Below are positions 58,449-62,583 of a DNA stretch of 64,000 bases, in pieces; positions within the stretch are counted from its first letter, which is position 1, and every line of letters begins with the position of its first letter. This DNA is from Escherichia coli (GTDB taxonomy: Bacteria > Pseudomonadota > Gammaproteobacteria > Enterobacterales > Enterobacteriaceae). The stretch is taken from NCBI RefSeq assembly GCF_003019035.1, contig NZ_CP027447.1. One strand, written 5' to 3'. A program made the translations under genes and the position numbers. The notes under the pieces are model-generated. The model was given only the letters and a program-made list of their open reading frames with translations, searched no databases and had not been told where the DNA came from.

Positions 58449-59216
58449 ATGGAACGAGGCACTGCGTCTGGCGGTGCCTCTTTACTTAAGGAATTTCATC
58501 CTGTGCAAACCCTTCAACAAGTTGAAAACTATACGGCGTTAAGTGAACGTGCCAGCGAATATTTATTGGCCGTGATCCGTAGTAAACCGGATGCCGTGAT
58601 TTGCCTGGCGACCGGAGCCACGCCATTACTGACGTATCATTATCTGGTAGAAAAAATCCACCAGCAGCAGGTTGATGTCAGCCAGCTCACCTTCGTGAAG
58701 CTCGACGAATGGGTGGATCTGCCATTAACAATGCCTGGCACCTGCGAAACTTTCCTACAACAGCATATCGTGCAGCCGCTGGGGCTGCGTGAAGACCAGC
58801 TCATCAGCTTTCGCTCTGAAGAGATAAATGAGACAGAGTGCGAACGGGTAACGAACCTGATTGCGCGCAAAGGCGGTCTGGATTTATGCGTTCTCGGATT
58901 GGGGAAAAACGGTCATCTTGGGCTGAACGAACCGGGAGAAAGCCTGCAACCGGCCTGCCATATCAGTCAACTTGATGCCAGAACACAGCAACATGAGATG
59001 TTAAAAACCGCGGGCCGTCCCGTGACTCGTGGGATCACCTTAGGCCTGAAGGATATTCTCAATACCCGCGAAGTTTTGCTACTGGTGACTGGCGAAGGAA
59101 AGCAGGATGCGACAGAACGTTTTCTCACGGCTAAAGTCTCTACCGCTATCCCGGCTTCGTTTTTATGGCTGCATAACCATTTCACATGCGTGATTGATGA
59201 AATGTGTCGTCGTTAA
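58449..59216 (+). CDS. agaI: putative galactosamine-6-phosphate deaminase/isomerase AgaI (NagB family)
   Basis: 255 aa; ATG immediately follows the agaD stop; NagB/glucosamine-6-P deaminase-like. Confidence 0.82.
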   Translation: MERGTASGGASLLKEFHPVQTLQQVENYTALSERASEYLLAVIRSKPDAVICLATGATPLLTYHYLVEKIHQQQVDVSQLTFVKLDEWVDLPLTMPGTCETFLQQHIVQPLGLREDQLISFRSEEINETECERVTNLIARKGGLDLCVLGLGKNGHLGLNEPGESLQPACHISQLDARTQQHEMLKTAGRPVTRGITLGLKDILNTREVLLLVTGEGKQDATERFLTAKVSTAIPASFLWLHNHFTCVIDEMCRR

Positions 59217-59265
59217 CTCGCCTAGTAAAGGCGTTGTAGCGCTATTCCTGCTGCAACGCCTGTAA

Positions 59266-60129
59266 TCACTCTCCCTGCTGCTCCAGTGCATACTTATACA
59301 GCGCATTTTTCTTCACGCCGTGAATTTCTGCTGCCAGCGCCGCCGCTTTTTTCAGTGGCAGTTCTGCCTGCAACAGCGCCAGCGTGCGCAGGGCATCGGC
59401 GGGTAAGTCTTCTTCCTGTGCTTTATGGCCTTCGACAATCAGTACCATTTCGCCTTTGCGACGGTTTTCATCTTCTTTGACCCACGCCAGCAGCTCGCCA
59501 ACGGGCGCGCCGTGAATGGTTTCCCAGGTTTTGGTCAGCTCACGCGCCAGAACGACGTAGCGGGATTCGCCTAATACCGCAACGATATCTTCCAGGCTAT
59601 CTAACAGACGGTGGGTAGATTCATAAAAAATCAGCGTGCGCGGCTCCGCTTCAATGGCTTTTAGCGCATCACGGCGGCCTTTTGATTTGGCAGGTAAAAA
59701 GCCTTCATAACAAAAACGATCGGATGGTAAACCCGCGGCGCTTAACGCAGTGATAGCAGCACACGGCCCGGGTAGCGGCACCACGCGAATCCCCGCTTCA
59801 CGGCAGGTACGCACCAGATGGTAGCCAGGATCGTTAATTAGCGGCGTTCCGGCATCGGAAACCAGCGCAATGTTTTGCCCCTCTTGCAGCTTCGCCAGCA
59901 GCGTTTCGGCTTTTTGTTGTTCGTTATGGTCGTGCAGCGCAAACAACCGAGCATTAATCCCAAAATGTTGCAGCAATAAACCGGTGTGACGCGTATCCTC
60001 GGCGGCAATCAGATCAACGGCCTGTAATACCTCCAACGCACGCTGGGTGATATCCGCCAGATTGCCGATTGGCGTCGGTACAATGTAAAGCTGGCCCTGA
60101 GAATTATCCGCCGATTGGTGTTGTTTCAT
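59266..60129 (-). CDS. rsmI: 16S rRNA C1402 2'-O-methyltransferase RsmI
   Basis: 287 aa; recognised sequence; divergent from lpoA. Confidence 0.88.
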
Positions 60130-60193
60130 TGTGTCGTCCGTATTGCCGATTTAATATTGAGCATTGCGTAAAAAAAATATCACTGGATACATT

Positions 60194-62230
60194 ATGGTAC
60201 CCTCAACATTTTCTCGTTTGAAAGCCGCGCGTTGTCTGCCTGTTGTTCTGGCAGCCCTGATTTTCGCCGGTTGTGGCACCCATACTCCCGATCAGTCCAC
60301 TGCTTATATGCAGGGCACGGCGCAGGCTGATTCTGCCTTTTACCTGCAACAGATGCAGCAAAGTTCTGATGATACCAGGATCAACTGGCAATTACTCGCC
60401 ATTCGTGCACTGGTGAAAGAAGGTAAAACCGGACAGGCGGTGGAGTTGTTTAACCAACTACCGCAAGAACTGAACGATTCTCAGCGTCGCGAGAAAACAC
60501 TGCTGGCGGCAGAGATTAAACTGGCGCAGAAAGATTTTGCTGGCGCGCAAAACTTGCTGGCGAAAATCACACCTGCAGATTTAGAACAAAACCAGCAAGC
60601 GCGTTACTGGCAGGCAAAAATCGATGCCAGCCAGGGGCGTCCTTCCATTGATTTACTGCGCGCGTTAATTGCTCAGGAACCGCTGCTCGGCGCGAAAGAA
60701 AAGCAGCAGAATATTGACGCCACCTGGCAGGCGCTCTCCTCCATGACTCAGGAACAGGCGAATACGCTGGTGATCAATGCCGACGAAAATATTCTGCAAG
60801 GCTGGTTGGATCTGCAGCGCATCTGGTTTGATAACCGTAACGATCCCGACATGATGAAAGCCGGGATCGCCGACTGGCAGAAACGTTATCCGAACAACCC
60901 GGGCGCGAAAATGCTGCCAACGCAGTTGGTTAACGTAAAAGCGTTTAAACCCGCATCGACCAACAAAATCGCCCTGCTGTTGCCACTGAATGGCCAGGCA
61001 GCGGTATTTGGTCGCACTATTCAGCAAGGCTTTGAAGCGGCGAAAAATATCGGCACTCAGCCAGTGGCGGCCCAGGTAGCTGCCGCACCTGCCGCAGACG
61101 TAGCAGAACAACCTCAGCCGCAAACCGTGGATGGCGTTGCCAGCCCGGCACAAGCCTCGGTTAGCGATCTGACCGGTGAACAACCTGCGGCCCAGCCGGT
61201 GCCTGTAAGCGCCCCGGCGGCAACCACCGCAGCGGTAAGCGCACCCGCGAATCCATCCGCAGAGCTGAAAATCTACGATACATCATCACAACCACTTAGC
61301 CAGATCCTCAACCAGGTTCAACAGGATGGCGCGAGTATTGTGGTCGGTCCGTTGCTGAAAAATAACGTTGAAGAGTTGCTGAAGAGCAACACCCCGCTGA
61401 ACGTGCTGGCACTGAACCAGCCGGAGAACATCGAAAACCGCGTCAATATTTGTTACTTCGCGCTTTCACCGGAAGACGAAGCGCGCGATGCAGCGCGTCA
61501 TATTCGTGACCAGGGTAAACAAGCGCCGCTGGTGCTGATCCCACGCAGTTCATTGGGCGATCGCGTAGCCAATGCGTTTGCGCAAGAGTGGCAGAAACTG
61601 GGTGGCGGCACCGTTCTGCAACAAAAATTTGGTTCCACCAGCGAATTACGCGCAGGTGTTAACGGCGGTTCGGGTATTGCTTTAACGGGTAGCCCGATTA
61701 CTCCCAGAGCGACAACCGACTCCGGCATGACGACCAACAATCCAACGCTGCAAACCACGCCAACCGATGACCAGTTCACCAATAATGGCGGCCGTGTCGA
61801 TGCGGTGTACATTGTGGCAACGCCGGGCGAAATCGCTTTTATCAAACCGATGATCGCCATGCGTAACGGTAGCCAGAGCGGTGCAACGCTGTACGCAAGC
61901 TCCCGAAGCGCACAAGGCACCGCGGGTCCGGATTTCCGTCTGGAAATGGAAGGTTTGCAATATAGCGAAATCCCGATGCTGGCGGGCGGTAATCTGCCAT
62001 TAATGCAGCAGGCGCTCAGCGCGGTGAACAACGATTATTCGCTGGCTCGCATGTATGCGATGGGCGTTGATGCCTGGTCGTTGGCAAATCATTTCTCACA
62101 AATGCGCCAGGTTCAGGGTTTCGAAATCAACGGTAATACCGGAAGTCTGACGGCTAACCCGGATTGCGTGATTAACAGGAAGTTATCATGGCTACAGTAC
62201 CAACAAGGTCAGGTAGTCCCCGCCAGTTAA
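60194..62230 (+). CDS. lpoA: outer membrane lipoprotein activator of PBP1A, LpoA
   Basis: ORF trimmed to [27 protein letters not shown]... (678 aa, lipobox LIFAGC); A/P/Q-rich linker. Confidence 0.88.
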
Positions 62231-62583
62231 CCACCAAACAGACCGGCGATGCGTGGGAAGCACAAGCGCGTCGCTGGCTGGAAGGCAAAGGACTGCGGTT
62301 TATCGCCGCTAACGTGAACGAGCGTGGCGGCGAGATCGATCTGATAATGCGTGAAGGCAGGACCACCGTTTTTGTCGAGGTGCGTTACCGCCGCTCTGCG
62401 CTTTATGGCGGCGCGGCAGCCAGTGTGACCCGCAGCAAACAACACAAATTATTACAGACTGCCCGCTTGTGGCTCGCGCGTCATAATGGGAGTTTTGATA
62501 CTGTGGATTGCCGGTTCGATGTGGTAGCCTTCACCGGGAATGAGGTTGAGTGGATTAAGGATGCCTTTAATGACCACTCATAA
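62188..62583 (+). CDS. yraN: UPF0102 family protein YraN
   Basis: 131 aa; overlaps the lpoA 3' end; synteny. Confidence 0.82.

Follow-up and report, generated by a model that had tools for sequence, protein, structure and literature searches.

The Ala/Pro/Gln-rich stretch inside the lpoA gene of Escherichia coli is region 1 of the LpoA protein, a feature already known from the work of Jean et al. (2014, Structure 22:1047; PMC4111904). We are confident in this account of the segment's identity, topology, and evolutionary behavior taken together, a confidence that leaves aside the function of any motif within it. The segment is a disordered, Ala/Pro/Val/Gln-rich surface loop of ~70 residues that interrupts the periplasmic-binding-protein-like C-terminal domain after its first helix and before its second strand. 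The loop evolves through in-frame insertions and deletions and through fast amino acid replacement, under selection that is relaxed yet purifying, and for that reason is hypervariable between genera. As a feature it is ordinary: its disorder was described in 2014, and the length variation that an earlier note on this DNA had proposed for E. coli is not present. The published region 1 matches our segment in protein, residues, disorder, and absence from Haemophilus influenzae; what we add to it are population and comparative data and a conserved island within the loop. The comparative picture is of a loop whose length is fixed in E. coli, hypervariable between genera, and repeat-driven in Enterobacter.

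The lpoA gene and the position of the loop

In the window, the 64,000-nucleotide stretch of E. coli DNA that we analyzed, lpoA occupies positions 60194 to 62230 on the plus strand and encodes 678 amino acids plus a stop codon. The ATG at 60194 gives the 2,037 nt of the RefSeq lpoA annotation, a start that differs from the one listed for the longest open reading frame (TTG at 60164). The gene carries the name lpoA in 5,424 RefSeq genomes, and the neighborhood rsmI, lpoA, yraN, diaA, and a BON-domain gene is present, as judged from the open reading frames of the window and the RefSeq annotation of matching loci. The product belongs to the LppC family of Pfam (PF04348; E = 1.2e-135), and a scan of LpoA against NCBIfam gave no match. 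Its N-terminal domain is ~99% identical to the PDB entries 2mhk and 6dr3, which cover this domain of E. coli LpoA, and H. influenzae LpoA (5kcn) matches the protein at E = 1e-83. As read from the sequence, the N terminus contains the lipobox FAGC with Cys27 encoded at 60272 to 60274, marking LpoA as a lipoprotein, and this cysteine is nearly invariant across the family alignment. LpoA of E. coli K-12, to which the protein of the window is ~99% identical, has been reported to bind and stimulate PBP1A (PMC4111904).

The 70-residue peptide singled out in the earlier note corresponds exactly to LpoA residues 289 to 358, encoded at 61058 to 61267 on the plus strand. The peptide is thus real, but the positions assigned to it, 61060 to 61270, are off by 2 to 3 nt; translation of 61061 to 61270 runs from PVAAQ to SAELK. 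Its description as an Ala/Pro/Gln-rich segment of low complexity holds: Ala makes up 30% of the residues (11% in the rest of LpoA), Pro 16% (5%), Val 13% (5%), and Gln 11%. The residues F, W, Y, I, L, M, C, H, K, R, and N together account for 3 of the 70 positions versus 41% elsewhere in the protein; Lys and Arg are absent altogether, and the segment is net acidic. Shannon entropy over 40 residues reaches its minimum for LpoA here, at 2.98 to 3.1 bits compared to ~3.3 to 4.1 bits in the remainder. The DNA is likewise GC-rich, as had been proposed, with a GC peak of 0.67 against ~0.52 for the gene.

We delimit region 1 as residues 285 to 358 (61046 to 61267, plus strand) from the translation, the nuclear magnetic resonance (NMR) literature, and an AlphaFold2 (AF2) model; Jean et al. 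gave it as N285 to P351 (PMC4111904). An alignment of 122 sequences served as input for the AF2 model, whose mean pLDDT is 86.6. The model contains a helix at residues 270 to 286, coil at 287 to 356, and a strand at 357 to 362. The loop is anchored on its N-terminal side by the helix, which is alpha1 of the C-terminal domain (61001 to 61051, plus strand; assigned by DSSP on the AF2 model and conserved in the family), and on its C-terminal side by the strand, which is beta2 with the sequence ELKIYD (61262 to 61279, plus strand; AF2 model and alignment). Residues 295 to 343 have pLDDT values below 50 and no secondary structure, which, together with the depletion of order-promoting residues and the NMR data, identifies the segment as disordered. 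Indeed, the NMR resonances of region 1 and of a second region in the same domain were assigned as flexible, and both regions are absent from H. influenzae LpoA (PMC4111904). The flexibility claimed for the segment in the earlier note is thus borne out by both NMR and the model.

Comparison with the H. influenzae protein leads to the same boundaries. A phmmer alignment of E. coli LpoA against 5kcn is broken into three parts (E. coli residues 37 to 291 with H. influenzae 4 to 259, 352 to 472 with 253 to 376, and 530 to 677 with 395 to 541), and E. coli LpoA therefore has two insertions, at ~292 to 351 and 473 to 529. Opposite residues 292 to 351 the H. influenzae protein has ~7 residues. The other insertion corresponds to region 2, the second disordered insertion of the C-terminal domain, which we place at residues 493 to 531 (61670 to 61786, plus strand) from the NMR literature, AF2, and alignments, and which Jean et al. 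gave as S493 to N531 (PMC4111904). H. influenzae LpoA (3ckm, 5kcn) and the LppC family (PF04348) share with E. coli LpoA the TPR-like N-terminal domain and the periplasmic-binding-protein-like C-terminal domain; they differ from it in having a turn of 5 to 13 residues where E. coli has ~70, and region 2 is shorter.

These positions bear on the proposal that LpoA spans the periplasm by means of this segment as a flexible linker, whose repetitive, GC-rich DNA slips and so gives it different lengths in different strains, an explanation we regard as extremely improbable. The segment is disordered and GC-rich, as that explanation has it. However, it is internal to the C-terminal domain, where helix 270-286 precedes it and strand 357-362 follows it, with both ends in one beta-alpha-beta unit. 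The true linker, joining the N-terminal domain to the C-terminal one, is K249 to K258 (60938 to 60967, plus strand), which was found to be rigid (PMC4111904) and is modeled by AF2 with pLDDT above 90. Since both ends of the loop are anchored in a single beta-alpha-beta unit, we infer that it adds no reach; LpoA spans the periplasm as an elongated and rigid protein of two domains. This agrees with the literature, in which LpoA is described as using no flexible region for its reach across the periplasm (PMC4111904, PMC4632607) and as reaching PBP1A as a rigid elongated protein (PMC4632607).

A disordered spanning linker belongs instead to LpoB, and to read the LpoA segment as a linker is to confuse the two proteins. 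The N-terminal region of LpoB is likewise proline-rich and disordered, and LpoB, too, is a lipoprotein of the outer membrane and the activator of a class A PBP. Its disordered region supplies ~145 Å of periplasmic reach (Egan et al. 2014, summarized in PMC4632607). In LpoB, however, that region connects the lipid anchor to the globular domain, whereas the segment of LpoA is a loop inside a domain; it is not placed between anchor and globular domains, where a linker of the LpoB type would add reach. Jean et al. and the 2015 review alike give the function of region 1 as unknown (PMC4111904, PMC4632607), and the terms "disordered," "flexible," and "unstructured" were not found in two later LpoA papers.

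Loop length within E. coli and between genera

Within E. coli the length of region 1 is essentially fixed, rare deletions excepted. A 451-nt query around the segment matched 5,424 of 5,426 genomes, always over at least 80% of the query, and the span in the record equaled that of the query in all 60 of the rows we took at even spacing down the ranking. With a 901-nt query over both disordered regions the spans were equal in 59 of 60 evenly spaced rows. The exception, the weakest row, was the O103 strain WL1467, which lacks 48 nt in region 2 and has region 1 intact. Small insertions and deletions were assessed on these two samples of 60 rows, and none fell in region 1 in the 120 evenly sampled rows of complete E. 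coli genomes (5,424 in total). At the protein level, the main cluster at 90% identity holds 10,877 distinct sequences, of which all 14 listed full-length members are 678 amino acids long, and the exact LpoA protein of the window occurs on at least 1,000 contigs. The expectation that length would differ between E. coli strains therefore fails on these samples and on the coverage of at least 80% in all 5,424 matching genomes. The earlier note had named identical length and sequence across diverse strains as the contrary outcome; for length that is what we found, but the sequence is polymorphic.

The DNA of the segment offers little for slippage to act on. Tandem Repeats Finder (minimum score 30) reported one tandem repeat in the whole of lpoA, a degenerate 30-nt unit in 1.9 copies at 61205 to 61262 on the plus strand (79% match; 71% as direct-repeat family D1), and no microsatellite or short-unit tract in the E. 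coli segment. The remaining direct repeats, where exact, have 9 nt or fewer. To call the segment repetitive is thus weakly true, in that it has this one degenerate repeat and a few exact 9-mers, but it contains no short-unit tract.

E. coli LpoA does have length variants, which form clusters of no more than two sequences each. One allele, P0008, lacks 40 amino acids (120 nt), with its junction exactly between two copies of the 9-nt direct repeat GCGGCCCAG at 61067 to 61075 and 61187 to 61195 (plus strand). Another, P0013, lacks 77 amino acids (231 nt), and here the junction falls between two copies of GCAGCGGTA, also a 9-nt direct repeat, at 60998 to 61006 and 61229 to 61237 (plus strand). Both of these rare deletions have the form expected from replication slippage or from microhomology deletion. 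The allele P0006, from a metagenome-assembled genome, lacks 34 amino acids and shows little microhomology at the junction. P0004 lacks 3 amino acids (9 nt) of region 1 as well as 16 (48 nt) of region 2, the latter between the 7-nt repeats CAACCGA at 61713 and 61761. Every one of the best 30 complete-genome matches to P0004 is 57 nt longer than the query, so none of these carries both of its deletions; the 48-nt region 2 deletion occurs in at least one complete genome and in fewer than ~92, which is one sampling step of the 901-nt ranking. In Salmonella, a single-isolate allele (P0064) lacks 45 amino acids of region 1.

The proposal that the tract is slippage-prone thus retains weak support in E. 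coli: there are rare single-isolate deletions, two of them exactly between 9-nt repeats, but the microsatellite type of polymorphism is found in Enterobacter and not in E. coli. In Enterobacter sichuanensis, LpoA alleles range from 708 to 729 amino acids, and the long allele has in region 1 a (CAGGCG)x5.5 repeat and a 12-nt repeat in 2.2 copies, neither of which is present in the short allele. The general expectation of length polymorphism therefore holds for the loop in Enterobacter but is false in E. coli. A similar division appears on comparison with contingency-type simple sequence repeat loci, which share with lpoA the in-frame insertions and deletions in a low-complexity coding tract. 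The long E. sichuanensis allele, with its (CAGGCG)x5.5 repeat, behaves like such loci, whereas the E. coli tract differs from them in having neither a short-unit tandem repeat nor common length alleles. Given that the E. coli segment has no microsatellite, no length change in 120 sampled genomes, and coverage of at least 80% in 5,424, we consider the spanning-linker and slippage explanation refuted for E. coli, the rare deletions between 9-nt repeats and the E. sichuanensis repeats being the observations on its side.

Across the family, the loop is a lineage-specific expansion. Among 105 full-length representatives of clusters at 50% identity, the loop between alpha1 and beta2 has 5 to 13 residues in most, and ~20, which are among those most similar to E. 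coli LpoA, have 40 to 104 residues with no conserved length. With taxon names taken from cluster look-ups, so that the taxonomic distribution is a sketch, the expansion is present in Sodalis (96 residues), Xenorhabdus (79), and "Ca. Hoaglandella" (66) and absent from Limnobaculum, Mergibacter, and Ursidibacter. Those representatives of the Enterobacterales that are nearest to E. coli thus have it, and it is absent from Pasteurellaceae, Budviciaceae, and most LppC proteins. A candidate for natural deletion of the whole loop, the 598-amino-acid protein P0138 labeled Enterobacter kobei, was rejected because its folded domains are 54 to 59% identical to those of Enterobacter cloacae LpoA; it is a divergent homologue without the expansion.

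Between genera the loop varies from ~40 to 150 residues, and length differences among aligned Enterobacteriaceae LpoA proteins fall largely in region 1. Total length is 677 to 678 amino acids in Escherichia, 680 in Salmonella, mostly 683 to 685 in Citrobacter, 706 in Pseudescherichia, and 708 to 729 in Enterobacter and Lelliottia, and one LpoA of 748 amino acids carries an internal duplication of ~33. The E. coli version of region 1 is among the shortest and least repetitive. Every Enterobacteriaceae homologue that we saw keeps at least ~70 loop residues, rare deletion alleles excepted.

Selection on region 1 and a conserved island

We estimated selection by the Nei-Gojobori method on eight diverse E. 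coli alleles. The ratio piN/piS was 0.18 in region 1, 0.18 in region 2, 0.04 in the N-terminal domain, and 0.02 in the folded C-terminal domain, so that region 1 stands at 5 to 9 times the folded domains; the alleles were picked from an identity ranking over this same segment, which inflates the diversity of the segment and affects the N/S ratio much less. Nonsynonymous and synonymous polymorphic codons numbered 15 and 25 in region 1 compared to 11 and 115 in the folded parts (Fisher P = 6e-5). Between species, where the values are free of the bias from allele choice, dN against Salmonella was 0.31 in region 1 and 0.08 to 0.11 in the folded parts. Selection on region 1 is relaxed yet still purifying.

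This rate pattern is compatible with a nearly neutral expansion at a surface turn that has no function of its own, any conserved residues being a remnant or the trace of a weak folding or export constraint. The absence of the loop from most of the family, H. influenzae LpoA included, fits such an expansion, as do its hypervariable length and sequence, its piN/piS of 5 to 9 times that of the folded domains, and the deletion alleles in natural E. coli and Salmonella isolates. Nevertheless, we judge it unlikely: at least ~70 residues are kept across the Enterobacteriaceae homologues seen, save for the rare deletion alleles; the piN/piS of 0.18 is far below 1; and, as set out below, the amino acids of one motif are kept through synonymous changes. 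The natural deletion alleles do imply that neither loop nor motif is needed for viability. That argument is weak, however, because lpoA is itself dispensable when PBP1B-LpoB is intact.

Alternatively, the loop might act as an entropic bristle or spacer, for which composition (Ala, Pro, Gln, Thr, and Ser, an acidic character, and no residues that are basic or bulky) and approximate length alone would matter. A spacer of this kind might shield the surface of the C-terminal domain or tune passage through the pores of peptidoglycan. Its similar composition and dissimilar sequence across genera speak for this view, as do its net acidic character, its lack of Lys and Arg, and the occurrence of purifying selection without positional conservation in parts of the loop. 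Against it stand the two-fold variation in length between genera and a position-specific conserved island that it leaves unexplained, and we regard it as quite unlikely.

The island comprises residues 313 to 327 (61130 to 61174, plus strand), and an alignment of 109 Enterobacteriaceae homologues shows it surrounded by hypervariable flanks. Its core pattern, V-x-S-P-x-x-A-x-V-x-D-L-T, covers residues 316 to 328 (61139 to 61177, plus strand). In a panel of 19 sequences, V316, S318, P319, A322, L326, and T327 are each conserved in at least 90%, while the flanks average ~50%. Of 120 close homologues, 111 carry the pattern V.SP..A....LT, compared to 1 of 2,000 shuffled proteins, numbers that weigh against the nearly neutral expansion. 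Deletion alleles account for five of the nine exceptions, namely, four from E. coli and P0064 from Salmonella. Beyond the closest genera, P0135 alone has the pattern, and P0136 has a degenerate form of it. None of the 15 nonsynonymous E. coli polymorphisms of region 1 lies inside the island.

Comparison of E. coli, Salmonella, Citrobacter, and Enterobacter shows synonymous codon differences in the island, and the constraint therefore acts on the protein. An RNA element or other nucleotide constraint beneath the motif was considered and rejected on the same synonymous changes between species and on an Rfam scan of 59900 to 62400, which found no RNA element. In the AF2 model the motif has a pLDDT of ~32 and is neither folded nor docked in the LpoA monomer. 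Protein-level conservation of so short an island amid flanks that are disordered and variable is the pattern of a short linear motif. Jean et al. (PMC4111904), the 2015 review (PMC4632607), and two later LpoA papers make no mention of the island; it may be the new part of a feature that is otherwise already described.

The island may be a short docking motif. A tentative interpretation, which we consider less likely than not, is that the island is the functional element of the loop, a short linear motif on a tether, docking either a partner in the periplasm or LpoA's own C-terminal domain. The variable flanks would then display the island while being only compositionally constrained spacers. 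More specifically, and with more doubt, the island could be an Enterobacteriaceae-specific tethered motif for PBP1A, PBP4, NlpI, another peptidoglycan enzyme, or the cleft of the LpoA C-terminal domain. Were the motif to bind a partner, it would provide an extra regulatory contact in the PBP1A-LpoA machinery of cell wall synthesis in enteric bacteria, and docking by the island would give region 1 a regulatory role in the activation of PBP1A. It offers a testable lead, a conserved motif within a region listed for a decade as being of unknown function. Against a function of the motif stand natural alleles that lack it, in E. coli P0006 (without 34 amino acids) and P0008 (without 40) and in Salmonella P0064 (without 45), as well as the missing loop of H. 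influenzae LpoA and the AF2 monomer model, which predicts no docking.

On the opposite strand, an antisense open reading frame of 172 amino acids extends over 60665 to 61183. It lies opposite the conserved coding sequence and its GC-rich, low-complexity tract, and the pattern of substitutions fits coding on the plus strand.

Length changes in the region 1 loop outside E. coli

The disordered loop of the LpoA C-domain (region 1) varies in length in other genera. In the Enterobacter sichuanensis lpoA allele L016, region 1 contains a hexanucleotide repeat, (CAGGCG)x5.5, followed by a 12-nt repeat present in 2.2 copies (L016 positions 1308-1366). LpoA alleles from genomes carrying this species name range from 708 to 729 aa, and it is through indels at the region 1 repeats that this range arises (L016 versus a second allele, L017). 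To judge from these alleles, loop length polymorphism in E. sichuanensis, which belongs to a genus other than that of E. coli, is truly repeat-driven. A larger change was observed in P0047, a 748-aa homologue from an ENA contig, in which approximately 33 aa within region 1 are tandemly duplicated (…PAPAETQAAPATDAASEQPQPQN… x2); the resulting loop of ∼150 residues is the longest version of region 1 among those seen. Loss of sequence was found in a Salmonella enterica LpoA from a single isolate (P0064, 638 aa), whose region 1 is missing 45 aa, the conserved island included, making it the counterpart of the rare E. coli deletion alleles.

A deletion allele in region 2

The second disordered region of LpoA (region 2; window 61670-61786) has an in-frame deletion allele of 48 nt, or 16 aa, that falls exactly between two 7-nt CAACCGA repeats within it (61713-61719 and 61761-61767). 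E. coli O103 strain WL1467, whose genome sequence is complete, carries this deletion (locus L005) and has an lpoA product of 662 aa (WP_000249179.1); the same 48 nt are absent from two draft-genome alleles, P0004 and P0010, on an identical sequence background. This common background indicates that the three carriers represent one lineage.

Gene boundaries and neighborhood

Whereas a mechanical ORF list begins lpoA at a TTG (60164; 688 aa), the annotated start is the ATG at 60194 (678 aa, MVPSTF…), which is conserved among aligned homologues. At its 3′ end, lpoA overlaps the yraN ORF, whose ATG lies at 62188, by 43 nt (62188-62230), and the RefSeq genomes examined are annotated likewise. Upstream, an agaI-like gene (Glucosamine_iso) immediately adjoins rsmI in the window (58449-60129) and in the matching locus L001, whereas in loci L002 and L004 that place is taken by a 363-aa fimbrial-family gene (PF00419), a pattern suggesting that a fimbrial gene cluster immediately 5′ of rsmI-lpoA is present in some genomes and absent from others.
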